The position numbers were made by a program, and so were the translations under genes. This document shows, piece by piece, positions 2,370 to 24,724 of a stretch of DNA of 25,144 bases. The stretch is from an uncultured bacterium (GTDB lineage Bacteria; Abyssobacteria; SURF-5). The notes under the pieces were generated by a model. That model saw nothing but the letters and a program-made list of their open reading frames with translations. It did not search any database and was not told where the DNA came from. Position 1 is the first letter of the stretch, and every line of letters starts with the position of its first letter. The stretch lies in NCBI GenBank assembly GCA_964607485.1, contig CAZSKP010000056.1, positions 1 to 25,144 of the forward strand, given 5' to 3'.

Positions 2370-3830
2370 TCACCTATTCCTGAGCGAGATGGCCTTCTGG
2401 TAGAGCTCTTCATACTTCTTCGCAGAGGCGTTCCAGGAAAAATCACACGCCATCCCGTTCAACATCATTCGTTTCCATTCGTCCGGTTTCGAGTACAGCC
2501 CGCGGGCCTCCCGGAGCTTTTCCAGCAGCGCGGAAGAGGAATACTCTTCAAACTTGAATCCGTTGCCCAACGAGAAAGCGGAGGCGACATAGTCGGTCAC
2601 GGTGTCTTCCAGGCCGCCGGTGGCGCGGACCAGCGGGACCGTTCCGTATTTGAGGCTGTACATTTGATTCAGCCCGCAGGGTTCATACCTGGAAGGCATG
2701 AGGAAGACGTCGGCGCCCGCCTCGATCTTATGCGCCAGCTCGTTTGAGAAGGCGAGTTTCAGTCCGAGCTTCCGGGGATATTTTTGCGCGAACTCCTTGA
2801 ACAAGTCGTGATATTTCTTCTCCCCAGTTCCCAGCAGAACGAACTGGTAGTCTTCCTTCATGATGTCATCCATCACGGGAGCCAGTATGTCAAAACCCTT
2901 CTGGTCGGCCAGACGTGAGACGACGCCCAACAAGGGAGTGTTGTTCATCTGGGGCAGGCCGAACTGTTCGAGCACGTCGGCCTTGCACCTGGCTTTACCG
3001 GAGAGGTCGTCGGGCCCGTAATTCGCGATGAGATATTTGTCGGTTTGGGGATTCCACTCGTCGTAGTCAACCCCGTTGAGCACCCCGAACAGGCGGCCCG
3101 AGCGTTTTCTCAATATGCCTTCCATCCCGCAGCCGAATTCCGGCGTCTGAATCTCTTCGGCATACCGGGGGCTGACCGTGTTCAGAACGTCGGCGCCGAC
3201 GATTCCCGCTTTCAGCAGGTTGATCTTTCCGTAGAATTCGATGCCGTCGGGAGTGAACAGGTCCCACGGCAGATTCGTGAGATGCATGTCCAGATGCCAG
3301 AACAGGCCCTGATAGCCTATGTTGTGGACGGTGAAGAGCGTGCCCGTGCGCTGGAAATCGGGCCTCTCGCGCCGGGGGAAATCCATGTAAAAGGGCACAA
3401 GCCCCGTCTGCCAATCGTTGCAGTGAATGACGTCGGGAGTGTAACCCAAAACCCTGCAAAGTTCGACGACGGCCTTCGAGAAGAAGATGAAACGCTCGGC
3501 ATTGTCGGGGTAATCGCCCTTCGGAGTGCCGTAGAGCCCGTCGCGGAGATAATAGGCCGACTTGGCGATAAAGTAGATCGTGGCGCCGCCGTTCAAAACG
3601 GTTCGGAACACTTCGCCGTATTCCTCGCCGTCCGACATGGGTACCGAGAAGGTCAGGTCCATATCATCGAGGTCGAACCCCTTCTGCTTCGTGGCCTCGT
3701 ACAGAGGGACGACCGCGGAAACCTCATGGCCGAGCTTGCTCAACGCCTTCGCAAGCGCTCCGGCCACGTCGGCGAGTCCGCCCGTCTTTGAGAACGGAAC
3801 CATCTCGCTCGTGGCAAGCAGGATTCTCAT
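2370..3830 (-). CDS. glgA: Glycogen synthase
   Basis: KTGGLADV, HCNDWQTG, MPSRYEPCGLNQM and TGGLEDTV motifs. Confidence 0.96.
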   Translation of the reverse strand: MRILLATSEMVPFSKTGGLADVAGALAKALSKLGHEVSAVVPLYEATKQKGFDLDDMDLTFSVPMSDGEEYGEVFRTVLNGGATIYFIAKSAYYLRDGLYGTPKGDYPDNAERFIFFSKAVVELCRVLGYTPDVIHCNDWQTGLVPFYMDFPRRERPDFQRTGTLFTVHNIGYQGLFWHLDMHLTNLPWDLFTPDGIEFYGKINLLKAGIVGADVLNTVSPRYAEEIQTPEFGCGMEGILRKRSGRLFGVLNGVDYDEWNPQTDKYLIANYGPDDLSGKARCKADVLEQFGLPQMNNTPLLGVVSRLADQKGFDILAPVMDDIMKEDYQFVLLGTGEKKYHDLFKEFAQKYPRKLGLKLAFSNELAHKIEAGADVFLMPSRYEPCGLNQMYSLKYGTVPLVRATGGLEDTVTDYVASAFSLGNGFKFEEYSSSALLEKLREARGLYSKPDEWKRMMLNGMACDFSWNASAKKYEELYQKAISLRNR

Positions 3831-5098
3831 GCTTTCCCTTCTGCCTTCTCGGTGGAAGGCATATATACTTTAACGGGCGGCGGCTTTATTTCCGTACCTT
3901 TGGCAATGACCACGATGCCCGAATCGGTCACGGTGAACCGTTCTCTGTCCTTGTCGAGGTCGTAGCCGATCTCCGTACGGGCCGGTACCCGGACATATTT
4001 ATCAATTATAGCATTTCTGATGCGACAGTGACGCCCCACGTCGACGCCGTCGAAAAGTATCGAGTCCTCGACCAGCGCGAAACTGTTTATGCGCACGCGC
4101 AGCGAAAGGACCGACCGCTTCGCCTTACCCCCACTGATGATGCATCCGCCCGAGACTATCGAGTCGAGCGCCACTCCGAGCCGTCCGCCCTTGTATTCCT
4201 GAGCGAACACAAACTTTGCGGGCGGATGCTGAGGGTGAAACGTGCGAACCGGCCAGTCGGGATCGTACAGGTTGAACACGGGACTGACCGCTACGAGGTC
4301 CATGTTTGCCTCGTAGTAGGCCTCTATGGTGCCGACGTCCTTCCAGTACTTCGCCGTCTTCTTGTTCTCGTCGATGAAATTGTAGGCGTAAACCTTGTAG
4401 GAATCCAGCATCGTGGGGATGACGTCCTTGCCGAAATCGTACAGGTGCCGTTTTTCGGGAGAATCGGCCAGCACCTCGACCAGAACGTCCTTGTTGAATA
4501 TGTAAATTCCCATCGACCCGAAACACAGGTCCTTTCTCCCCGGCAGAGGGGCCGGGTCGGAGGGCTTCTCCTGAAAACCGGTGATGCGCTCGTTTTCGTC
4601 CACCTGCAATATGCCGAACCGGTGCCCCTCCTCGAGGGGAATCTCCAGCGCGGCCACCGTCATGTCGGCCCCTTTGTCTTCGTGAAAATCGAGCATCTTG
4701 GCGTAGTCCATCTTGTATACATGGTCGCCCGAAAGGATTACGACTCTCGTCGTCCCGCCGTAATCGAGCAGATGAAGGTTCTGATAAATGGCGTCGGAGG
4801 TGCCCAGATACCAGTCCTTGCTCACCCGCTGCTGTGCGGGAATCAGCTCGATGAACTCGCCGAACTCCTGGGGGAAGATGCTCCAGCCGTTTCTCACGTG
4901 CCGGTTGAGGGAATCTGATTTGTACTGAGTGAGGATGAAAATGCGCCGCAGGCCCGAATTGACGCTGTTGCTCAGCGTGAAATCGATCAGCCGGTATATC
5001 CCCCCGAACGGGACGGCGGGCTTGGCCCTCTCCAGCGTCAGGGGATACAGTCGCTCCCCCTTGCCTCCGACCAGCAGCATTGCCAGCACATGCCGCAT
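3827..5098 (-). CDS. glgC: Glucose-1-phosphate adenylyltransferase
   Basis: GGKGERLYPLT, RAKPAVPFGG, LSGDHVYKMDY, FQEKP, SMGIYIF, YWKDVGT. 4-nt overlap with glgA. Confidence 0.95.
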   Translation of the reverse strand: MRHVLAMLLVGGKGERLYPLTLERAKPAVPFGGIYRLIDFTLSNSVNSGLRRIFILTQYKSDSLNRHVRNGWSIFPQEFGEFIELIPAQQRVSKDWYLGTSDAIYQNLHLLDYGGTTRVVILSGDHVYKMDYAKMLDFHEDKGADMTVAALEIPLEEGHRFGILQVDENERITGFQEKPSDPAPLPGRKDLCFGSMGIYIFNKDVLVEVLADSPEKRHLYDFGKDVIPTMLDSYKVYAYNFIDENKKTAKYWKDVGTIEAYYEANMDLVAVSPVFNLYDPDWPVRTFHPQHPPAKFVFAQEYKGGRLGVALDSIVSGGCIISGGKAKRSVLSLRVRINSFALVEDSILFDGVDVGRHCRIRNAIIDKYVRVPARTEIGYDLDKDRERFTVTDSGIVVIAKGTEIKPPPVKVYMPSTEKAEGKA

Positions 5099-5217
5099 TG
5101 CCCCTCAACCCCCTTCTGTCCCGAATCCCGGCGACGACGCCTGATCGACCCCGGGATAGAATCGGCGACACGTTGCATGCCGCCGTCACGCCCGCGCGCA
5201 ACCTCCCTGCCCCAGTA

Positions 5218-5246
5218 ATTTTAACAAAACAGGGGTCATTAGTCAA
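5218..5246 (-). promoter_or_regulatory. Sigma70-type promoter for the glg operon
   Basis: Minus strand TTGACT-17 nt-TAAAAT, with TGn just upstream of the -10. Confidence 0.6.
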
Positions 5247-5347
5247 CGGGCGCCGGACGGCTGTTTCGGGCATGAGAGTCTCCGGCCCGCGGGCCGATGC
5301 CGGGCTTCGAGCAAAGGCGCCGTGTAATACTTCGAGCAAATTTTTGC

Positions 5348-5376
5348 TTGACAACAAAAACGATTGGTGATAGTAT
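5348..5376 (+). promoter_or_regulatory. Sigma70-type promoter for the mraZ-like operon
   Basis: TTGACA (5348-5353)-17 nt-TAGTAT (5371-5376), with an extended -10 TGn. Confidence 0.7.
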
Positions 5377-5453
5377 CTAATTGTATGCCACGAAAAATAT
5401 TCATTATATATAGCACTCGGAGCTCGTCGGATTTTTTTCTTATGCCCGCGGAC

Positions 5454-5498
5454 GGGCAGATTTGGCATGTAATGGGCAATCGGGGGCGAAACGGGGCA
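5454..5498 (+). promoter_or_regulatory. 10-bp-periodic GGGC(A) direct repeats, putative MraZ-type operator
   Basis: GGGCA 5454, TGGCA 5463, GGGCA 5474, GGGCG 5484, GGGCA 5494, lying between the promoter and the likely start codon. Confidence 0.5.
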
Positions 5499-5530
5499 GG
5501 GTAGCCCCGGAACGACAAGGTCAACAACTC

Positions 5531-6007
5531 TTGTTCCTGGGAACATTCGAACGAAAGCTCGACTCTTCCTACCGATTCCGGCTTCCCAAGGAGCTGCTTC
5601 GCGAGCTGTCGCCCGGCTCTCACAACAGCCTTCCCTGCCTTTCAATCTTCGGAGAATGCCTCGTTGTATATCCTCCCAGGAGGTTCCGCCGGCTGGTGGA
5701 GAGTTTTTCCGCCTTTGAACTGTCCAACCCCGAACACCGGCAGCTCGCGCGGGACTTGTTTGCAAACATCGAAAACTGCAAGGTGGATTCGACGGGCAGG
5801 ATGACACTTCCGGAGCACTCGAGAAACTCCGCGGGTATCTCTTTCGACGTGGTCATCGTAGGCGCGGGAAAGTACTTCGAGATTTGGTCGAAGGAACGAT
5901 TCCGCGCACAACGCTCCGGCTCGGGAAACTCGTCGAGCAAGAACCTGAGCGGGAGTGTGTTGTTTAATGCACTTGAAGCGGATAGAACCGGGGGAATTGG
6001 AGAATGA
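5531..6007 (+). CDS. mraZ: MraZ-like transcriptional regulator (tandem AbrB/SpoVT fold), outside the dcw cluster
   Basis: (M)FLGTFERKLDSSYRFRLP, KVDSTGRMTLP (two DxxxR motifs) and VVIVGAGKYFEIWS. TTG at 5531, downstream of AAGG, matches the usual MraZ N-terminus better than the ORF-track start at 5462. Confidence 0.82.
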   Translation: MFLGTFERKLDSSYRFRLPKELLRELSPGSHNSLPCLSIFGECLVVYPPRRFRRLVESFSAFELSNPEHRQLARDLFANIENCKVDSTGRMTLPEHSRNSAGISFDVVIVGAGKYFEIWSKERFRAQRSGSGNSSSKNLSGSVLFNALEADRTGGIGE

Positions 6008-6792
6008 ATGTGAAGCACTGTTTCAGCCCTTGCAGAAAAGACAAAACGATGGGCGATGCCGCCCGTCCGGGTTCGGGGGAAGTCTTGCTTTCGCGGCAGA
6101 CGATGGATACGGTTGTGATATTTTCCCCCAACGAAAATTTTGTAGAACTTGCCGGCGACGCGCTTACGAAGCAGGGTTTTGACCCGCTTCCGGCAAACAG
6201 TCAGCGCCAGCTTACGAGCTGCCTTTCGGGGAGATACCTGAATTTCCTGATCGACTGCGATCAACCCAGCCTCCGAAAGGTGTGTTCGGTCGCCACAATG
6301 ATACGGAACCGCGCCCCCAACGCCTTCATCCTCGCCCATTGTCCCAACCTCAGTTGGCGAACACATGTGACGGCGGCCGGAACAGACGCAATCATGGACG
6401 GCAAGCAGGACCTGTCGCTCCAGATCATCGAATCTTCCACGGGGTTTCTGGAGAACATAAGCTCGCTCGTTTCGCAGCAGCTCCGGTCGACCCGCAGGAA
6501 GATGAGGGATGCCGCAATTCGGTCGAGCATAGAGAAGGCGACCGCCAGGCTCGCCCGTCTGTCGCTCAAACGGATGCTGCAGAACGACGAGAACGTCCGC
6601 GCCTTTTTCAACAATTCGTGGCCCGCCTCCAGACATGGTCAATACGTCGCAATCATCGGCGGCAAGACCATCGGGTTTGCCAGCAACCGGAAGGAACTCG
6701 CCGACCGCATCAAGCCTTTCATGCCGCCGGGAAACGTCTTGATTCAAAAAATCGACTGTGAGAACGATTCATACGGACAATACGCAACCTGA
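6004..6792 (+). CDS. Hypothetical protein with a degenerate receiver-like N-domain, a basic helical linker and a DUF5678-like C-domain
   Basis: ATGA overlap with the mraZ-like gene. Alternating beta/alpha pattern resembling REC (TVVIFSPNE...FLIDCDQP...AAGTDAIMDGK). C-terminal HGQYVAIIGGKTIGFASNRKEL resembles DUF5678. Confidence 0.6.
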   Translation: MNVKHCFSPCRKDKTMGDAARPGSGEVLLSRQTMDTVVIFSPNENFVELAGDALTKQGFDPLPANSQRQLTSCLSGRYLNFLIDCDQPSLRKVCSVATMIRNRAPNAFILAHCPNLSWRTHVTAAGTDAIMDGKQDLSLQIIESSTGFLENISSLVSQQLRSTRRKMRDAAIRSSIEKATARLARLSLKRMLQNDENVRAFFNNSWPASRHGQYVAIIGGKTIGFASNRKELADRIKPFMPPGNVLIQKIDCENDSYGQYAT

Positions 6793-6803
6793 GGGAGGAT
6801 GGC

Positions 6804-7151
6804 ATGAAGTTTCTGTGCGTCGCCGCAAATTCGGAGGTCTCCGTGAAGGTACGCAATTCGCTGTTTCCATGGAGATACTTCGAAGCCCAGGCCCTCATCG
6901 ACACGGGAGCCGACTTCTCCTGCGTTCCAACGCACATGATCCCCAACCTGGGCTTTGTCGCCTATCACATCATCGAGATAGGCGATTACGACGGAGTGAA
7001 GCGTCTGAAGCTCGCCTACAACCTCACCATCGACTTCTTCGGAAAATCCCATGACCTCGAAAGCGTCGTGGGCGTCGAGGGCGAAACCGTTCTGTTGGGT
7101 CGGGACGTGCTCGAAAACCATTCGCCCATGCTGCTGCTCCCCGCTCAGTGA
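6804..7151 (+). CDS. Retropepsin-like (clan AA) single-domain aspartic protease
   Basis: ALIDTGADFSCVP catalytic motif, C-terminal LLGRDVL, GGAGGA RBS, 115 aa. Confidence 0.85.
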   Translation: MKFLCVAANSEVSVKVRNSLFPWRYFEAQALIDTGADFSCVPTHMIPNLGFVAYHIIEIGDYDGVKRLKLAYNLTIDFFGKSHDLESVVGVEGETVLLGRDVLENHSPMLLLPAQ

Positions 7152-7264
7152 GCCCGCATTGAACCGCCGCTCTGCAGCCTCCTCCCCTTCTCCCGTGTTG
7201 GCTCCTTTTCTCTCCTCAACGAAGAAAAGCGAAAAAACCGGCGGACCTCCAAGGATATGACGGA

Positions 7265-7293
7265 TTGAATTTTGTTCGGGCATCAACTATAAT
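7265..7293 (+). promoter_or_regulatory. Sigma70-type promoter for the large MshEN-domain gene
   Basis: TTGAAT-17 nt-TATAAT. Confidence 0.65.
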
Positions 7294-7356
7294 ACCGACT
7301 GATTTGATTGGTCTGCCCGAATGCGGAAGCTGGCGGGACCCAAGAGGAGAGTGTCG

Positions 7357-10300
7357 ATGACGCAAGCACATGAGAACCTGGGCGACATGCTCGTGGAAGA
7401 AGGCGTCTTATCACGGGATGAACTCGAAGAGGTGCTCGAAAAATCCAAGGAACGCAACCTTCCCCTTGAGGAAACTCTTTTCAAGCTCGGCTACGTCTCC
7501 CGCGACAGGTTGGGAGCCATCCTGGCGAAACTCTATCAGTGCGACTTCATAGACCTGTATTCGTGCCGCGTCAACGACGAGGCCCTCAGCGCGATTCCCC
7601 CCGAGGTGGCATCGAGGCTGCGCGCACTGCCATATGCGCTCGAGGGAGAAACGCTCGTGGTCGCGCTCGCAGGAATCTTTGAGGACAGGCCGCTTCAGGA
7701 AATCGCGACCGAGCTCGAACGAGCCTCGGGAAAGAAGGTCCGCCTGACGTTCTGCAATCCCGACCCGTTGAAGGAACTGCTCCAGAGGTTCTACAAGGAG
7801 CAGACCGAGGCCGCGCACCTCCCCCGCGAAGGGCTGGGGTCGATAGTCGCCTCGATTAAGCCCGAAGAGGCGGGCGCGGGCCTTCGCGGACAATTCGAGG
7901 AACTCTACGACGTCGGCCAGACCGCACTGATAGGGGCGCGCTCGCACCCGTTCAGCCGGGCGGTGGCGGCCTCCATAGAGGAAGCGAGGGCGAAGCTGGC
8001 CGATTCGAAAAAATACGCCGAGTCGGGATTCGAGGAAGAGGCGGCCGAGATGGCTACGCAGGCCATCACGCTGCTCAAAGAGGCGACGACGAAAGCCGAC
8101 TCCGTGGAGAAGGATTGGGAAAAGCTCGTGCAGCAGGTGAAGAGTCTCCGCGCCAAGATAGTCGCGCTCGAGGAAGAGGGAGCGGCGCAGTATGCTTCCT
8201 CGGAATTCAGGGAACTCGCGGAAATACGCGACGCGCTCCTCGAGTGCGTCAACGAGCGGAACGTTGACAGGCTCCGCTCGCTGCTCGACCAGGGCATGAT
8301 TATCACGGAGAAGGTGGGCCTGCTGTCGCCCGATAGGAACCGGGGCCGCGAGCAGGTCATCGCAAGCCTGGCGCAGGTTCGAGAGGTGATAGCGCGCGCC
8401 CGAAAGGTCGGCGCGAAGGACCACGCGCCCGACGTGCTGAAGGAAGCCTACGACTTCCTCGACAAAGCCGAGGCCTGCGCCCGTCGCGCGCACTGGGACG
8501 AGGTTCGCGACTGCCTCTTCTCCGCCGAGGCGAAGGCCGTCGAGGCCGAGGGCATCGCCCTTCAGGCTCTCGAAAGAGAGAAGCAACTGACGGTCGAATT
8601 GCGAGAGGCGGTCCGCGACGCCACCGCCGTTCTTGAACAGGCCATGGCGCACTCTTTCGCGCAGGAGGTGATTGGAGACCTCATGCGCGCCAAGGACATG
8701 ATAAGCGAGGCCAAGAGCTGTTTCGAGACGGGCGGGCACGAGAGAGGCATCGGCCTTGCGCAGGATGCCGCCAGGCGTATCAGGGAGGAGATAATCCCGG
8801 GCGCCGACGACGCCGAGCGAGCCTGGAACGAGCTGTTTCGAAGGGCCGACGAGGTTTCGGCGCACGTTCAATCGATAGACATACCGCTCGCTATGAAAGT
8901 CGCTTCCGAAAAAATGGAACACCTCTTTCAGAACGAACGCAACATGGTAAGCTCTCTTTGCGGAAGAGATCGGGACAAGCTCGCCGACGCGATCTCAGCG
9001 TGCGAGGGCCTGATTCGAGAAATCAACGACTGCATCGACCCGGTGAGGGAAGGCATGCACCGGGCCGAGGGCGCAATTGCGAACGCGAGCGGCCTGCTGG
9101 CCGAGGCGGCTGCCTCGGGCGTTGACGAGAAGGTCGCGCCCGCCTATGAAGAGGCACGCCGGCTGCTGGAAGAGGCGAGGCACTTTGTCGGCGAGGGAAA
9201 CGCCGATGGCGCCATGAACAGCGCCGAGGCCGCGCGAGCCAAGCTCCAGGCAGAGGTGATCGAACGCCAGAAGTCGGCCCGGGAAAGATGGCTCGAGCTG
9301 ATTCCACGGTCGACGGAACTTTTCAAGAGGGTCGATCAGGCGTGTTCTCCCGACGCAGTCCACTACTGCCCCGAGCTTGTCCACACCCTCGAGGCTCACG
9401 CCGCCGACATGTTCTTCGCGCTCGCGGCGCGTGACCCGGAAAAAATGGAGGCGTGCATCGCGCCCATCGAAGAGACGATGCGCTCCGTCGCAGCGGCCAT
9501 CGAGGCGGCGAGATCGGAGCTTCACAGGAATATCTCCCAACAACTTGCCGAGATCGAGGAGGCCGTGCAGAAGGCAGTCCGCACGTGCTCGGGCAGCTAT
9601 GCGCCCGATATGCTCGAGGGCGCATACCTCGACTTGAACCGAATGAAAGAACAGGTAGCAGCCGGGCCGGAGGCGTTGGACGCCGCCCTGGAAAGCAGCC
9701 TGATGCGCGACCTCGCCGTCGCCCGGACCAAGGTGTGGCAGGTCGAGTTCTTGCGCGAAAGGTTCGAGCGCGAACGGCAGGAGGACCTGGAACAGCTTAG
9801 GCTGAAGATGACGGCGGCGCGGGAGGAAATCGACGAGTGCGCAAAACTCGATTTTATCGGCGAAGCCTCTCCGCTGGTGCAGCAGGCGCGCAGCCTGCTC
9901 GATCAGGCGGACAATCTGCTGATGGAAGGAGACATCGAGGGCAGCTTCGAGCTGGTGCGGCAGAGCCGCGCTACGCCCGAGCAGATGCTGGCCGAGGCCG
10001 AGAAGAAGGAACAACGCTGGAAAGAGCTGGCCGAGTCGCTCTCCGCCGAGGGAGCGTCGCACCGGACGGTCCTTGCCGACCCGGCGTCAGAAAGAATCGC
10101 CGAGGAAGAATATCGAACGCTCTCCGTGCTCGCCGCTCAGACTCAATCGATGATAGACGCCAAGGACGTCGAAGCTCTTGAACGACACGCCCAGACGCTG
10201 AGCCGGTTGTCCGACGACATCGTCGGGCGCGTCGAGACATCCAGAGAGAGGTCGCGGGCGAACATCGAAACGAAGATGCGGGACGCAAGACAGGAGATTC

Positions 10301-10641
10301 GACTTGCGGAACTGCTGAAGGCGGATGATTTCTGTCCGGACGTAATTAACGCCGCGCGAGCGTTCATCGACGTCGCGCAACGATATGCCGACAGCGAAGA
10401 TTTTGCACGGGCCGATTCCGCCGTCCGCGACGCGGCCGCAAAAGCGCGCGACGCCGGCACCCTGGCGCAGGCCGGTCTGGAACGAGCGGGCAGTCTCGCG
10501 CTCGATTACATGAAAATCGCGTCGGCCCACATCACACAGCAACAGCCCGAGGCCGCAACGCAGGCGCTGGCCCGCGGCCTGGCCCTCGCCGAGCTCGCCC
10601 GCGCCTCACGCGAATCGCGCGAGCCCGCACAACCCGACTGA
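7357..10641 (+). CDS. Large protein with an N-terminal MshEN/T2SSE_N-like domain and alpha-helical repeats, no ATPase domain
   Basis: NLGDMLVEEGVLSRDELEEVL...LEETLFKLGYVS...IPPEVASRLRALPY...LVVAL resembles PilB/GspE N-termini. The remainder is A/E/R/L-rich and helical. ATG 7357 follows GAGGAG. Confidence 0.8.
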   Translation: MTQAHENLGDMLVEEGVLSRDELEEVLEKSKERNLPLEETLFKLGYVSRDRLGAILAKLYQCDFIDLYSCRVNDEALSAIPPEVASRLRALPYALEGETLVVALAGIFEDRPLQEIATELERASGKKVRLTFCNPDPLKELLQRFYKEQTEAAHLPREGLGSIVASIKPEEAGAGLRGQFEELYDVGQTALIGARSHPFSRAVAASIEEARAKLADSKKYAESGFEEEAAEMATQAITLLKEATTKADSVEKDWEKLVQQVKSLRAKIVALEEEGAAQYASSEFRELAEIRDALLECVNERNVDRLRSLLDQGMIITEKVGLLSPDRNRGREQVIASLAQVREVIARARKVGAKDHAPDVLKEAYDFLDKAEACARRAHWDEVRDCLFSAEAKAVEAEGIALQALEREKQLTVELREAVRDATAVLEQAMAHSFAQEVIGDLMRAKDMISEAKSCFETGGHERGIGLAQDAARRIREEIIPGADDAERAWNELFRRADEVSAHVQSIDIPLAMKVASEKMEHLFQNERNMVSSLCGRDRDKLADAISACEGLIREINDCIDPVREGMHRAEGAIANASGLLAEAAASGVDEKVAPAYEEARRLLEEARHFVGEGNADGAMNSAEAARAKLQAEVIERQKSARERWLELIPRSTELFKRVDQACSPDAVHYCPELVHTLEAHAADMFFALAARDPEKMEACIAPIEETMRSVAAAIEAARSELHRNISQQLAEIEEAVQKAVRTCSGSYAPDMLEGAYLDLNRMKEQVAAGPEALDAALESSLMRDLAVARTKVWQVEFLRERFERERQEDLEQLRLKMTAAREEIDECAKLDFIGEASPLVQQARSLLDQADNLLMEGDIEGSFELVRQSRATPEQMLAEAEKKEQRWKELAESLSAEGASHRTVLADPASERIAEEEYRTLSVLAAQTQSMIDAKDVEALERHAQTLSRLSDDIVGRVETSRERSRANIETKMRDARQEIRLAELLKADDFCPDVINAARAFIDVAQRYADSEDFARADSAVRDAAAKARDAGTLAQAGLERAGSLALDYMKIASAHITQQQPEAATQALARGLALAELARASRESREPAQPD

Positions 10642-10697: not shown

Positions 10698-11726
10698 CTA
10701 TTGAGGCAGTCTTGGCAGGTTTTTTCGCTTGAGTGGATCAGGTGCAGATGTATGTGTTCTTCTAATGCGGCGAGGACTCTTCTGGTGTTTGTCTACACTC
10801 GAACCGACAATTCTTCGAGAGAGAGAGCGTGCCTCGTCGACAGTTCCAAACAATCGATTGTCTCTCCGCTCAGCGTTTAGGAGCTCGTGAGCACGAAGGG
10901 AACTCAATGTCTTATGTCCAACGAGTTCTTGAATATTGTGTATATCCAATCCTTCATCAAGTAAGTGTTGTATTAAGCTCTTTTGCAGGGTCTTTGGGTT
11001 TATGGAGCATGCGGGCCATGCTTTTCGGGCATGCCTAGTTACAATCCGATGAATATCTCGTGTTTGTAGTGGATGTCCGTTGCCACTTAAGAACAGCGTT
11101 TTTCCTGAATGATGTCTCAACAAAACGTCCCGCTTCACAATGTATTCGCCAATTGCCCGTACAGTCATTAGGTTTAGTGGAAGAATGCGTTCGCGATCGT
11201 CCTTTCCGACTATTTTCAGTGTTTTCGTATTTAGGTCTACGTCATCAATTCCAATCCGTACAAGTTCATCCACCTTAATTCCAGTGTAATACAGCACAAC
11301 CATAATTGTTCTGTCGCGGATTCCACTGTCCTCATTGATGGGCAGGTTTAGCAGTTCTTCGATTTCTTCTCTCAAGAGGAATGTCTGTGGTTTCCAAGGC
11401 TCAGCATAGGGATGTGAAACCTCAAGCGCAGGATTGCTGTCCAATTCACCCTCATACTGGAAGAACCGAAAAAAGCTTCTGCATGCGCTGAGTCTCCTGC
11501 GAACGGTGTGCTTGTCCGAGTTACCGCTAAGTTGATATTCAAGGAAATCCTCTATCATGGGGCTGCTGACCTCACCGAGGGGGATGGATTTGGCCGGATA
11601 ACTGGGGAAAAAGCGATCTACCAAGAAATTCAGAAACTGTTTTATGTCGGTCACGTAGGCTCGTGTTGTTCTACTATCATAGTTGCTGATGTTCAAATAA
11701 TGCTGAAAGCGCTTGAGATGGCTCAT
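10698..11726 (-). CDS. XerC/XerD-like tyrosine recombinase homolog with degenerate catalytic residues
   Basis: N-terminal SAM-like region (TTRAYVTDIKQF, RRLSACRSFFRF, NPA), IRDRTIMVVLYYTGIKVDEL, GKDDRERILP, IQELVGH. Start is either ATG 11726 or TTG 11741. Low GC. Confidence 0.85.
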   Translation of the reverse strand: MSHLKRFQHYLNISNYDSRTTRAYVTDIKQFLNFLVDRFFPSYPAKSIPLGEVSSPMIEDFLEYQLSGNSDKHTVRRRLSACRSFFRFFQYEGELDSNPALEVSHPYAEPWKPQTFLLREEIEELLNLPINEDSGIRDRTIMVVLYYTGIKVDELVRIGIDDVDLNTKTLKIVGKDDRERILPLNLMTVRAIGEYIVKRDVLLRHHSGKTLFLSGNGHPLQTRDIHRIVTRHARKAWPACSINPKTLQKSLIQHLLDEGLDIHNIQELVGHKTLSSLRAHELLNAERRDNRLFGTVDEARSLSRRIVGSSVDKHQKSPRRIRRTHTSAPDPLKRKNLPRLPQ

Positions 11727-11771
11727 TTGAGACCTTGACAAAGCCTTAATAGTATTTGCTTGTTTTGAGAA

Positions 11772-15008: not shown

Positions 15009-15332
15009 AATCCGATTCCTTTCTACCCGGTGCCGTCTGGTGCGACGACAATTCGGCCCAATTCACCTCGCACCGACGACTTCTCTTTGCAGTTGCATGA
15101 ATCCGAGCATTCGCGTCAAATCATACTACCTGTTTCGTTCGGGCAAATCAAGGTCGGGTCGCGCGCTGCACTCGCGCCGCAAGAAAGCCAGTGAGAGGCT
15201 GTTTCCATCGGCAATCCCAGAGTTGACGCGTGAAACGGCGACATGATAGCCTATTGGAAGCAATCTTGACAGTATTATGTAAACCCGTTGCCCGAATGGT
15301 TTCGATGGGGAAACAGGAAGGAAGAGAGACAA

Positions 15333-15788
15333 ATGGAACGGGAAGAGCTTGGAAAACGCGTTCGGGAGAGCGTCAGAAGCTACATGAGCCAAGGCTTCAA
15401 CTGAGCCCAGTCGGTGCTCGGCTCTTGGCAAGAGCTGCTCGACATGAAAGACAACCTCGTGCTCAAAAGCGCCACCGGTTTTGGCGGCGGCGTCGGCGCG
15501 CGCGGCTCGATGTGCGGCATCGTCTCCGGAAGCGTAATGGTCATAGGACTGAAGCATGGGCAGGGAAGAGAAGACGAGAGGAGCGTGGCCCTGGGCGCCT
15601 ACCTGCGCTGCGGCCAGCTTCTGGATTGGTTCAAGAAGGAGTTCGGCTCGCAGATGTGTCACGATCTGACGGGCGGCGTCGATTTCAGCGACCCGGAACA
15701 ACTTTCAAAATATTACGCCTCCGGCCATGAGAAATGCGTCGAGATGGCCGGCAAAACGGCGGCAAAGCTTGCGGATTTGTTGGAATAA
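15333..15788 (+). CDS. C-GCAxxG-C-C family redox protein, probable selenoprotein (in-frame TGA at 15402-15404)
   Basis: MEREELGKRVRESVRSYMSQGFN-TGA-AQSVL...GFGGGVG...MCGIVSG...C...C. The TGA occupies the conserved NCAQ Cys position and a stem-loop follows it. Confidence 0.82.
15419..15437 (+). promoter_or_regulatory. Putative bacterial SECIS stem-loop
   Basis: CGGCTCTT-GGC-AAGAGCTG hairpin starting 15 nt after the in-frame TGA, with G in the apical loop. Confidence 0.55.
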
Positions 15789-18818: not shown

Positions 18819-19592
18819 TTATCGTGCCGGATCCATGCCCTTGCTGTTCGGTGCAGCCGGGTTGCGGAGACGCCCAGCCTCATCAAAGAGCAGATCATAC
18901 AGGATCTCAAAGTAAGTATTCAGCAACGACTCGATGGATTCGTTCGTGCGCTCAATCCAGGCACGCTTCGCCTTGCGCACCTCGCGGTAGGTGCGCTCGT
19001 ACAAACTGGCGTAAGCCTGGCTCTCGTTCCGAATAACCTCGAATGTCCCCAGCCTGATGAAATCCTGGTCCATAAGGGCATGGCGCTGTTCGTGAACGTG
19101 GGCTCCACGAATTCTTGTGAAGCCCGATAAGACAGCGCTGAAATGTTTGCTGATCGCTTTGCTTGCGACATCGATCTCGCGACTGCGGGAGTCAGCTTTG
19201 AATAGGCGCGAGATGACGGTGAGGTACTGCTTCATCCTCTCGCGCAAGAGATAGATTTCGTTCAGGTAGTTCTCAACGTGATACCGGAGATAGGCGCCTT
19301 TCTCTATGCCGGCGTGCCGATACGGGAAACGACTGATGTAGACCGGGATGTTGCGAAGATTCTTTACAGACTCAAGAATCTCCACGAACCCGAAGAAAAG
19401 TCGTTCGACAGCGGCTTCGTGGGGGGGCATCTGTCGGCGCTCCGGTGGATGCTTACTGTGGGGATGGCCGAGATACTTGCTAATCGAGTACTGGGCCAAC
19501 GCGTGGTCGCTTTCCTGCATCCCATCGATGAGGTTGCCGGCCTCGTGAGTTATCGCAATACTGAAGTGGTCAAAAGCAGACATTGCCCACAT
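18819..19592 (-). CDS. HEPN-domain protein (Cthe_2314-like)
   Basis: Helical protein with YLRYHVENYLNEIYLLRERM and the Rx4H motif RGAHVH. Start may be ATG 19583. Confidence 0.65.
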   Translation of the reverse strand: MWAMSAFDHFSIAITHEAGNLIDGMQESDHALAQYSISKYLGHPHSKHPPERRQMPPHEAAVERLFFGFVEILESVKNLRNIPVYISRFPYRHAGIEKGAYLRYHVENYLNEIYLLRERMKQYLTVISRLFKADSRSREIDVASKAISKHFSAVLSGFTRIRGAHVHEQRHALMDQDFIRLGTFEVIRNESQAYASLYERTYREVRKAKRAWIERTNESIESLLNTYFEILYDLLFDEAGRLRNPAAPNSKGMDPAR

Positions 19593-19623
19593 TCCAATCG
19601 AGCGTGGTCCGGCAACGTGCCGC

Positions 19624-22076
<2,453 letters not shown>

Positions 22077-23397: not shown

Positions 23398-24519
23398 CTA
23401 TATTTTTTCGACTTGCCAGAATTCGAGTTCGACCGAGGTCAACCGTTCGAATATCTCCACCATGACCTTGAGCTTGCCCCGTTCGGGGTTGACCTCATCG
23501 ACGTACCCCATGAAATTAGTGAAAGGTCCTTCGATAATCTTCACCTTTTCGTCTTTCTCAAAGCTTACTTTCGGCTTGGGCTTCTTCTGCTCGCCCCGCA
23601 TCTGCTCGAAGATCGATTCGACCTCTTCGGGCTCGAGCGGCGTGGGCATTTTGCCGGAACCTATGAACCCGGTGACTCCGGGCGTCGTGCGGATGAGATA
23701 CCATGTCTTGTGGGTCAACTTCATTTCCACCAAGACGTAACTCGGGAAAATCTTCCGACTGCTGATCCGCTTCTTTCCGCCCTTCACCTCGGCCACTTCC
23801 TCGGAGGGAATGAGAACCTGAGAGACGAGATGCTCCAGATGCTCCTGTCTGACCCTGTTTTCCAGGCTCTGCCTCACTTTGTTTTCGTGGCCCGAATGCG
23901 CGTGAATGACATACCATCTCTTCTCGGCGGTCTCTTCCTCGGGAAGGGTGGTCAGCCTGTCCGCCCTTGGCTTGGCGACACGGGGCTTTTTCTCGGCCAC
24001 CTCTTCCGCCGGAGCCGGCCGTGTGAGAGGCTCGGCCTCGACAGGCTCGGCTTCGCCTGCGGCCTCCGGTTCTGAAACCTGCTGCTCGGCCGGCGCCTCC
24101 TCCGCAGATTCCGGTTCCGGGAGGGGCTCCCCCGCTTCGGCCTCCTCGACCGCTTCGGCCTCTGGCTCGGGCAATGGTTGTTCGGCCGGAGCTTCCTCGG
24201 TCGCAGCCTCGACGGTTTCAGACTCGTCGCCGGTCGCGGTCACGGAAGCGGGTTGCGCGGTTTCCTCTGCGGCCGGTGGCTCGGCGCCCTCCGGCTCGGC
24301 TTCGGCGCCCTCCGGCTCGGCTTCGCCGACATCCGGCTCGGTGGACGAAGGCGCAGAAGGCGGCTCTTCAGATTCGGAGGATACCAATGCCTCCTCCTCC
24401 TCTTCCTCGCCGGACGTTTCTTCCTGAACAGCTTCAGGAGGCTGGGTCGGCTGCTCCTCTTTGGAGGCCTCCGCCTGTTCTTGTTCCTGAGTTTCCTTTT
24501 CTTCGTTCTCTGGCGTCAT
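23398..24519 (-). CDS. nusG: Transcription termination/antitermination factor NusG with a long acidic N-terminal extension
   Basis: [35 protein letters not shown] motif VKIIEGPF. Probable start is ATG 24519 or 24525, just after the secE stop. Confidence 0.93.
24281..24322. repeat. Perfect 21-nt tandem duplication in the nusG extension
   Basis: TCGGCGCCCTCCGGCTCGGCT twice, encoding repeated EAEPEGA units. Confidence 0.9.
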
Positions 24520-24535
24520 GTTCATTCCAATACTG

Positions 24536-24724
24536 TCAGAGGCCGAGGATTCGGGTGATGACCACATAGAGCATGTAGTCAACGACCCCGAGGAACACGG
24601 TCACGATGGCGACCAACACAAGCACCACACCGGTGGAATTGAGGAGGTCCTTCCGTGTCGGCCAGGCCACCTTCTCCATCTCGGCCTTCACCTTTTTGAT
24701 GTAATCAATGATTTTCTTAATCAT
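24536..24724 (-). CDS. secE: Preprotein translocase subunit SecE
   Basis: EMEKVAWPTRKDL plus one TM helix, located between tRNA-Trp and nusG. Confidence 0.93.
   Translation of the reverse strand: MIKKIIDYIKKVKAEMEKVAWPTRKDLLNSTGVVLVLVAIVTVFLGVVDYMLYVVITRILGL

Follow-up and report, generated by a model that had tools for sequence, protein, structure and literature searches.

A three-gene operon predicted to encode a divergent MraZ-family protein, a candidate regulator and a retropepsin-like mini-protease in an uncultured Abyssobacteria bacterium

Three adjacent genes (positions 5531 to 7151, + strand) are the subject of this analysis. They are located on a DNA stretch of 25,144 nucleotides, referred to here as the window, which corresponds to contig CAZSKP010000056.1 (assembly GCA_964607485.1) of an uncultured bacterium of the GTDB lineage Abyssobacteria, SURF-5. 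The triad encodes a protein related to the transcriptional repressor MraZ, a two-domain protein that we refer to as ORF2 (for the second open reading frame), and a small retropepsin-like aspartic protease. We read these genes as an autoregulated operon encoding a regulated cytoplasmic mini-protease, and hence as a lineage-restricted protease-plus-regulator module; we assign this reading a probability of roughly 45%. The individual parts come from known families, whereas the literature that we searched describes neither the combination of the three genes nor a re-specified MraZ protein with its own operator nor a contact between DUF5678 and a protease flap.

The MraZ-like gene (5531-6007, + strand) starts with a TTG codon and encodes 158 amino acids. 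Its stop codon overlaps the start codon of ORF2 (6004-6792, + strand; 262 amino acids) in the sequence ATGA at 6004-6007. An in-frame GTG codon at 6010 possesses a better distance from the GGAG sequence at 5999-6002 than the ATG start of ORF2, and the ORF2 homologue in one of two related loci (L001 and L002, introduced below) starts at the residue equivalent to this GTG, namely in L001; ORF2 may therefore begin two nucleotides past the stop codon of the MraZ-like gene, in which case there is no overlap. The MraZ-like gene and ORF2 are packed for coupled translation whichever of the two starts is used. An intergenic gap of 11 nucleotides (6793-6803, + strand), in which we read the ribosome-binding site GGGAGGA, separates ORF2 from the protease gene (6804-7151, + strand; 115 amino acids). 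Upstream of the triad, a promoter scan predicted a sigma-70-type promoter at 5348-5376 (+ strand; TTGACA, a spacer of 17 nucleotides, TAGTAT, and a TG preceding the -10 hexamer; 10 of 12 matches). The region from 5000 to 7500 contains three promoter-like sites, compared to 0.9 +/- 1.1 in shuffled sequences. L001 and L002 retain both hexamers of the triad promoter and an upstream ATTTTGC sequence. No promoter or terminator was predicted between the triad genes, except for a single weak terminator-like site within the mraZ-like reading frame. A Pfam scan of the 25-kb window revealed no recognized family of the dcw cluster for division and cell wall (rsmH, ftsL, ftsI) among the 21 proteins scanned. 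A preliminary description of this DNA, made from its sequence alone, had claimed three tightly linked genes with an ATGA overlap and an 11-nucleotide gap carrying a ribosome-binding site, expressed from one promoter and unaccompanied by rsmH, ftsL or ftsI. These features were all borne out, with the proviso that the alternative GTG start at 6010 would remove the overlap, and the domain assignments made there (MraZ family; pseudo-receiver plus DUF5678-like domain; retropepsin-like protease with a DTG motif) hold as well.

By scanning genome contigs with ORF2 we obtained 33 matching stretches, two of which encode a relative of this protein. These two related loci, L001 and L002, are contigs of uncultured-bacterium assemblies. 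Both carry glgC on the - strand followed by the MraZ-like gene, ORF2 and the protease gene, with the gene order and the short gaps kept; the three-component arrangement set out in the preliminary description thus recurs beside glgC in two of two related loci. In the window and in both related loci, the gene next to the mraZ-like gene is not rsmH; ORF2 and the protease gene are found there instead. The triad and glgC promoters lie in a common intergenic region in all three loci, and an alignment of these regions revealed two conserved promoters and one conserved leader block. The second of these promoters, predicted at 5218-5246 (- strand), is that of the divergent glgC-glgA-galT glycogen operon, and it is kept in L001 and L002. 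Relative to the window, the proteins of the two loci are 59-64% (MraZ-like), 53-55% (ORF2) and 64-70% (protease) identical, so that the triad proteins (53-70%) are less alike than those of the neighboring genes glgC (78-79%), glgA (73%) and galT (85-86%). The MshEN protein and the tyrosine recombinase encoded downstream of the triad in the window are absent from L001 and L002. Since the synteny of the triad and glgC is kept while the downstream genes differ, the conserved unit comprises the triad plus its divergent glycogen neighbor. The triad itself is one conserved unit, found in all three loci.

All three families are small. A cluster search over 5.8 billion entries returned five matches among 952 candidates for ORF2 (53-89% identity), 12 among 17 candidates for the protease (61-98% identity) and 16 among 54 candidates for the MraZ-like protein. 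The sole match of the latter with less than 55% identity is P0035, an ordinary MraZ (35% identity).

The third gene is predicted to encode a retropepsin-like aspartic protease whose DTGA motif is intact. The protein matches the RVP family (PF00077) above its cut-off (E 3.9e-6; 27.5 bits versus 20.7) and TIGR03698 with an E of 1e-6 but below the cut-off (29 versus 57.35 bits). The codons of the catalytic motif D33-T34-G35-A36, as read from the sequence, occupy positions 6900-6911 (+ strand), and DTGA is invariant in all 13 of the aligned family members. A second motif, G99-[RK]-D101, is located near the C-terminus, where G99 and D101 each occur in 90% or more of the aligned members. In its single-domain size (115 amino acids), its DTGA motif and its C-terminal G-[RK]-D the protein resembles the clan AA proteases of the TIGR03698, RVP and gag-asp_proteas families, whereas its score below the TIGR03698 cut-off and the tiny size of its family (12 clusters) set it apart from the small proteases of this clan. 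Residues ~51-73 are what we take to be the flap hairpin, placed by analogy from the position relative to D33. Searches of the sequences in the Protein Data Bank (PDB) with the protease alone and with profiles of the ORF2 and protease families yielded no significant match; the only entry found with the protease profile was the HTLV protease (E 2, over the DTGAD stretch). Rickettsia APRc is reportedly membrane-anchored. In contrast to this enzyme and to the secreted Pseudomonas enzymes, the triad protease possesses no predicted signal or membrane segment. APRc (PMC4140852) and the Pseudomonas enzymes (PMC11957051) are characterized bacterial examples, and they are of other kinds. Proteins of about 100 amino acids with a retropepsin domain, and hence of similar size, are mentioned in PMC3973734 as occurring near type III CRISPR cassettes in Sulfolobales.

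ORF2 comprises, in this order, a disordered basic N-terminus, a putative pseudo-receiver, a long helix and a C-terminal domain that resembles DUF5678. No membrane segment is predicted, and the isoelectric point (pI) is 9.45 compared to 5.19 for the protease. The sole Pfam match of the protein is to DUF5678 (PF18929; residues 212-249, E 0.0044) with 17.3 bits versus a cut-off of 23.2. Because the PF18929 matches are below the gathering cut-off, we named the domain DUF5678-like. We place it at residues 196-252 (6589-6759, + strand), where a beta-beta-alpha-beta unit is modelled with a predicted local distance difference test (pLDDT) value of about 75-87. ORF2 and all five of its relatives (six of six family members) match the PF18929 model through their C-terminal 50 residues, at one place, about residues 209-249. 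The ORF2 domain differs from DUF5678 as a family in that it does not stand alone but is fused to the pseudo-receiver and the long helix, and in its matches below the cut-off. ORF2 matched nothing in NCBIfam or PADLOC and nothing useful in PHROGs. A literature search on DUF5678 found no function for this domain in print, nor any paper on the position of small DUF5678-type genes directly upstream of such proteases that the preliminary description had suggested. Look-alikes of the C-terminal domain in an atlas scored 0.78, which is below the level that we count as more than a lead; the third match among them is a cluster with DUF5678 in 75% of its members.

The remainder of ORF2 contains a candidate degenerate receiver-like (beta-alpha)5 domain at residues 35-147 (6106-6444, + strand), delimited from an hhalign comparison, a table of pocket residues and a low-confidence model. 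When the ORF2-family profile was searched against 1.84 billion representatives, three matches were obtained: the family's own representative, the repeat protein P0018 and the distant protein P0019. P0018, a protein of 1681 amino acids that matches ORF2 residues 13-84 in six stretches, was discounted as a repeat artefact. P0019 (230 amino acids) matches Response_reg above the cut-off (E 3.9e-9) and DUF5678 with an E of 1.7e-4 and 21.8 bits, and it thus has the same receiver-plus-DUF5678 architecture that we propose for ORF2. Hhalign aligned residues 35-251 of ORF2 end to end with residues 9-222 of P0019 (probability 75%, E 2.5e-5). Since P0019 contains a genuine receiver together with DUF5678, this alignment supports the reading of the ORF2 domain as a pseudo-receiver. 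The phosphorylation pocket of receivers is built from an acidic pair after strand 1, an Asp after strand 3, a Thr or Ser after strand 4 and a Lys after strand 5. In the ORF2 family, the acidic pair is lost (S41 in six of six members, followed by Pro or Ser at position 42), and the Lys position is occupied by S145 (6/6). The phospho-acceptor position, D84, is invariant (6/6), and the Thr position is T116 in four of the six members and a Leu in the window protein. The AlphaFold model of ORF2 contains five strand-helix units at residues 37-143 (pLDDT 40-66), a helix at 148-194 and a better-modelled beta-beta-alpha-beta unit at 214-249. Atlas look-alikes of the whole ORF2, among them receiver-like and OKR_DC_1_N clusters, scored 0.88 and were likewise not counted as more than leads.

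We predicted the complex of two protease copies with residues 185-262 of ORF2, each chain entered as an alignment, alongside three controls; only the partner chain was scored. The complex reached 0.67 (0.67, 0.66 and 0.69 in the individual runs), compared to 0.02 for the best of the three controls. Of 157 solved complexes, 116 attain the mark used for such scores, as do 2 of 215 mismatched pairs; these counts apply only approximately here, since the job comprised three chains and custom alignments. At least 94% of the contacts are common to the runs, and the pLDDT of the partner is at least 80. The contacts with the lowest predicted error connect the ORF2 strand 244-249 with the protease strand 51-56; the ORF2 helix 229-240 also takes part in the contacts, as do protease residues 67-70 and 73. 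These predictions support the view that the DUF5678-like domain binds the presumed flap strands of the protease, a pairing of protease and partner that the preliminary description had proposed to check by structure prediction.

The first gene encodes a divergent member of the MraZ family. Two stretches of the protein match PF02381 (E 1.3e-22; 80 bits versus a cut-off of 23), and residues 1-131 align with positions 1-128 of the TIGR00242 model (E 3.1e-24). Full-length homologues share the start MF[LV]GTFERKLD with the window protein. The score of the window protein on TIGR00242 (85.6 bits) and those of 10 relatives (nine from the cluster search and the L001 protein; 72.2-88.1 bits) are all below the equivalog cut-off of 98.35 bits, whereas the ordinary MraZ P0035 reaches 150.9 bits. 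Like canonical MraZ, the protein contains a tandem pair of MraZ (SpoVT-AbrB-like) repeats, and a DxxxR motif is found in both (D11SSYR15 and D86STGR90); this motif is defined in 10.1101/2022.02.09.479790 and PMC12957436. According to the latter report, MraZ of Mycoplasma genitalium reads four GTG(T/G) boxes, located upstream of the promoter, through Lys13, Arg15 and Arg86. The former describes three GTGG[A/T]G motifs with 4-nucleotide spacers for the Bacillus subtilis protein and a requirement for both DxxxR motifs, and AAAGTG[T/G] repeats are given for Mollicutes in PMC8475190. At the position of Lys13 of the M. genitalium protein, the window protein carries Ser13, with both Arg residues kept. 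Lys13 is replaced in the triad-type relatives as well: all eight that we read contain DSSNR, as opposed to DDKGR in P0035. Canonical MraZ is also the first gene product of its operon; it heads the dcw cluster and is followed by rsmH, whereas the triad copy is followed by ORF2 and the protease gene. A literature search, at the level of its listings, brought up no MraZ paralogue outside the dcw cluster.

The transcribed leader of the triad contains five evenly spaced boxes (5454-5498, + strand) that we consider a putative operator of the MraZ-like protein; the preliminary description does not mention them. The boxes GGGCA, TGGCA, GGGCA, GGGCG and GGGCA start at positions 5454, 5463, 5474, 5484 and 5494; their spacings of 9, 11, 10 and 10 nucleotides correspond to about one box per helical turn, and the spacings in L001 are identical. 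The five boxes are conserved in all three loci (spacing was measured in the window and L001), with box 4 reading GGAC in both L001 and L002. An array of five GGC units with gaps of 6-8 nucleotides occurs once in the 25-kb window, at this site; at least one such array was present in 3 of 200 first-order Markov simulations (mean 0.015). Short G-rich direct repeats with a period of about 10 bp near the protein's own promoter are a feature that the locus has in common with canonical MraZ, while the boxes differ in being of the GGGC rather than the GTGG type, in their number (five, not three or four) and in lying past the predicted promoter, on its downstream side, within the leader. The replacement of Lys13 by Ser with retention of both Arg residues fits the changed box sequence, the binding itself being inferred. 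A second run of three GGC units spaced by 10 nucleotides (5249-5271, + strand) abuts the predicted -35 region of the divergent glgC promoter. Its presence there raises the possibility that the glycogen operon is a further target of the MraZ-like protein.

These observations can be combined into a model of how the operon might work. An oligomer of the MraZ-like protein would bind the five boxes and repress its own operon, by analogy to canonical MraZ, a ring-shaped oligomer of 8-12 subunits, on GTGG-type boxes. The protease would act as a homodimer, and the DUF5678-like domain of ORF2 would bind each protease subunit by adding the domain's own last strand to the flap hairpin. As this hairpin would have to move for substrate entry, ORF2 could thereby hold the protease in check or direct it. 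The pseudo-receiver may serve as the input side that responds to a partner protein or a ligand rather than to phosphorylation, and its response would release or activate the protease. The receiver-domain regulators RssB and CpdR, which are phosphorylatable and deliver substrates to ClpXP, offer an analogy, in that a receiver-type input domain is coupled to the control of a protease. In contrast to these proteins, ORF2 has a degenerate phosphorylation pocket, and its candidate target, a dedicated aspartic mini-protease, is the product of the adjacent gene. RssB was also among the Foldseek matches of the low-confidence ORF2 model, albeit weakly (E 0.07). A bolder version of the model is one that we offer tentatively and judge to be somewhat unlikely. 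In it, DUF5678 would be dedicated to protease binding and would clamp the flap of the small retropepsin-like proteases of prokaryotes, the operon would constitute a new kind of signal-gated proteolytic switch in which the pseudo-receiver controls the clamp, and an MraZ paralogue with a re-specified DNA-reading residue would have been recruited from cell division and provided with its own five-box operator.

A number of points weigh against the reading of the triad as a regulated protease operon. Everything that concerns function is inferred, and the module has no described relative. All three loci stem from close relatives in which the glycogen genes are syntenic as well, so that the conservation of gene order is weak proof of a functional link. 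The operator reading likewise draws on three related sequences, and the array lies about 70-115 nucleotides downstream of the predicted -10 hexamer, unlike the boxes of M. genitalium, which precede the promoter. For ORF2, the PF18929 matches stay below the gathering cut-off of 23.2 bits in all six family members (16.4-20.3 bits, E 5e-4 to 8e-3), and Pfam yielded no Response_reg (PF00072) match at E values up to 1. Its apparent relation to receivers runs solely through P0019, with the hhalign probability of 75%. The AlphaFold model of ORF2 is poor (pLDDT 56), and a Foldseek search of it against the PDB returned generic alpha/beta folds only, with designed Rossmann and P-loop folds at 1.4e-4 and receivers at an E of ~0.03; the pseudo-receiver reading is thus supported by sequence, not by structure. 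The model of the protease is also poor (pLDDT 53, mostly beta), and Foldseek found no match for it in the PDB at E values up to 0.001, which leaves the retropepsin fold and the assignment of the flap without structural confirmation. Finally, the score of the predicted complex expresses the confidence of a model and is not a measurement.

Other explanations of the locus have to be weighed against this reading. The preliminary description had considered a toxin-antitoxin or defense function, and one can picture an anti-phage abortive infection system with the protease as toxin, ORF2 as antitoxin and the MraZ-like protein, with its AbrB/MazE-type fold, as a separate repressor. Such a role would suit a small, tightly linked gene pair whose products are predicted to bind each other and carry opposite charges (pI 9.45 and 5.19), the weak, sub-threshold MazE_antitoxin match of the MraZ-like protein in Pfam (E 0.0003), and the CRISPR-associated location of the retropepsin-domain proteins of Sulfolobales mentioned in PMC3973734. 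None of the three proteins, however, matches a PADLOC model (E up to 1), and tblastn searches with the protease and the C-terminal domain of ORF2 gave no match among plasmids (72,556 records) or phages (50,697 records); the MraZ-like protein matched nothing but ordinary mraZ genes among the plasmids (27-35% identity). A literature search brought up no paper that connects retropepsins with defense islands. All three loci share the chromosomal position next to glgC, the G+C content of the triad genes (0.556-0.563) is close to that of the window (0.577), and the very narrow distribution of the three families (5, 12 and 16 clusters in 5.8 billion) is unlike that of mobile toxin-antitoxin families. 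We therefore found nothing to sustain the suggested toxin-antitoxin or defense role and consider it unlikely. The omega-epsilon-zeta system is a three-component toxin-antitoxin operon with a separate repressor, and the triad resembles it in the order of repressor, binding partner and effector and in a repressor that is predicted to act on an array of short repeats. It differs in that the PADLOC, plasmid and phage searches gave no evidence of toxicity, mobility or defense for the triad, and in that the partner carries a sensor-like domain. A link of the module to cell division, also raised in the preliminary description, found no backing either, as nothing that we came across ties the module to this process. 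With a comparably small probability, the operon might be a switch in which a signal sensed by ORF2 causes the protease to cleave the MraZ-like repressor or ORF2 itself, thereby derepressing the operon and perhaps the glycogen operon too; the repressor/protease pair ImmR/ImmA provides an analogue. A repressor and a protease are indeed encoded in one operon, the intergenic region is common with the glgC promoter in all three loci, and the three-GGC pattern of the run next to the glgC -35 region has only two matches in the window, both in this intergenic region, versus 0.51 expected. Yet at least two matches were obtained in 11 of 100 shuffles of the window, only the first box of this run is kept in L001 and L002, and the glycogen genes may adjoin the triad simply because the genomes are related.

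The triad might also not be a functional unit at all: the lineage's ordinary, and possibly only, mraZ gene could have been displaced from the dcw cluster to a site beside an unrelated, lineage-specific gene pair. The protein clearly belongs to the MraZ family, and the synteny comes from three related genomes only, whose galT, glgA and glgC genes also show synteny. We nevertheless view a displaced mraZ gene as improbable in light of the close packing, with the stop codon of the MraZ-like gene either overlapping the start of ORF2 or preceding it by two nucleotides and no promoter or terminator predicted between the genes. Moreover, the window protein and its 10 relatives score below the TIGR00242 cut-off that P0035 surpasses, neither the window protein nor any of the eight triad-type relatives read retains Lys13, and rsmH is not the next gene in any of the three loci. 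A different question is whether the leader block is a protein operator; the alternatives are an RNA element, a G-quadruplex and a sigma-54 promoter. In favor of such alternatives, it is located in the transcribed leader; the window sequence at 5474-5501 (+ strand), which comprises boxes 3-5 and the following GGG, fits a four-tract G-quadruplex pattern; and boxes 2 and 3 (TGGCAT-N5-GGGCA) resemble the -24/-12 consensus of sigma-54 promoters at the GG and GC positions. Against this, no Rfam match was found in the region 5090-5560 (E up to 1), and RNAalifold, applied to 168 columns, yielded -14.2 kcal/mol and a covariation term of 0.01. L001 and L002, with GGAC as box 4, do not keep the G-quadruplex pattern, the sigma-54 match is weaker in L001, and five evenly spaced boxes are explained by none of these three proposals. 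We judge all three to be weaker than the operator reading and very unlikely.

To our knowledge, MraZ has been studied almost exclusively as the repressor of the dcw cluster. If the operon reading is true, a diverged MraZ with its own operator at the head of an unrelated operon would show that the mechanism of an MraZ ring assembled on repeats has been reused elsewhere, and it would provide a natural example of altered box specificity, with Ser in place of Lys13 and GGGC in place of GTGG. We know of no regulators of free-standing bacterial retropepsin-like proteases. The predicted clamping of the flap would then be the first concrete hypothesis, amenable to bench tests, both for DUF5678 and for the regulation of such proteases. 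Only a handful of uncultured bacteria carry the module, and no phenotype is known for it; its impact in the short term would therefore be modest unless the pairing of DUF5678 with proteases proves to be general.

The glycogen operon upstream of the triad, as identified in the Pfam scan, comprises genes for a GH57 protein, a galT-like protein, glgA and glgC (glgC at 3827-5098), all on the - strand and divergent from the triad. The gene upstream of galT in L002 (2521-2766) specifies a product with 30% identity over 102 residues to the GH57 protein of the window; given this weak match, the glycogen cluster differs beyond galT among these relatives. Directly downstream of the triad in L001, a tRNA-Leu(CAA) gene is located at 5675-5762. 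Its 3' end is overlapped by the C-terminal end of a tyrosine-integrase reading frame on the opposite strand (5708-6013) at the contig edge, the usual signature of an island that has inserted at a tRNA gene, here outside of the triad.

Downstream of the triad in the window, a promoter predicted by the scan at 7265-7293 (+ strand) precedes a gene (7321-10641, + strand) for a largely helical protein of 1106 amino acids whose N-terminus matches the MshEN or cyclic di-GMP-binding domain (PF05157, E 3.3e-9; NF053729, E 2.5e-12). Beyond its N-terminus, this protein matches no clear family, with weak DUF4398 matches only. It is followed by a tyrosine recombinase gene (10698-11741, - strand), as identified in the Pfam scan. 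Among the 16 flanking reading frames, four are without any Pfam family. Three sizeable ones without such a family at E values up to 0.001 are located on the - strand at 15126-15701 (191 amino acids), 18819-19592 (257 amino acids) and 19550-20824 (424 amino acids). A NusG-domain protein of 394 amino acids (23398-24582, - strand) carries the NusG N-terminal domain only at residues 221-324 and thus possesses an N-terminal extension of about 220 residues; its gene is found in the usual neighborhood of tRNA-Trp, nusG and the gene for ribosomal protein L1.

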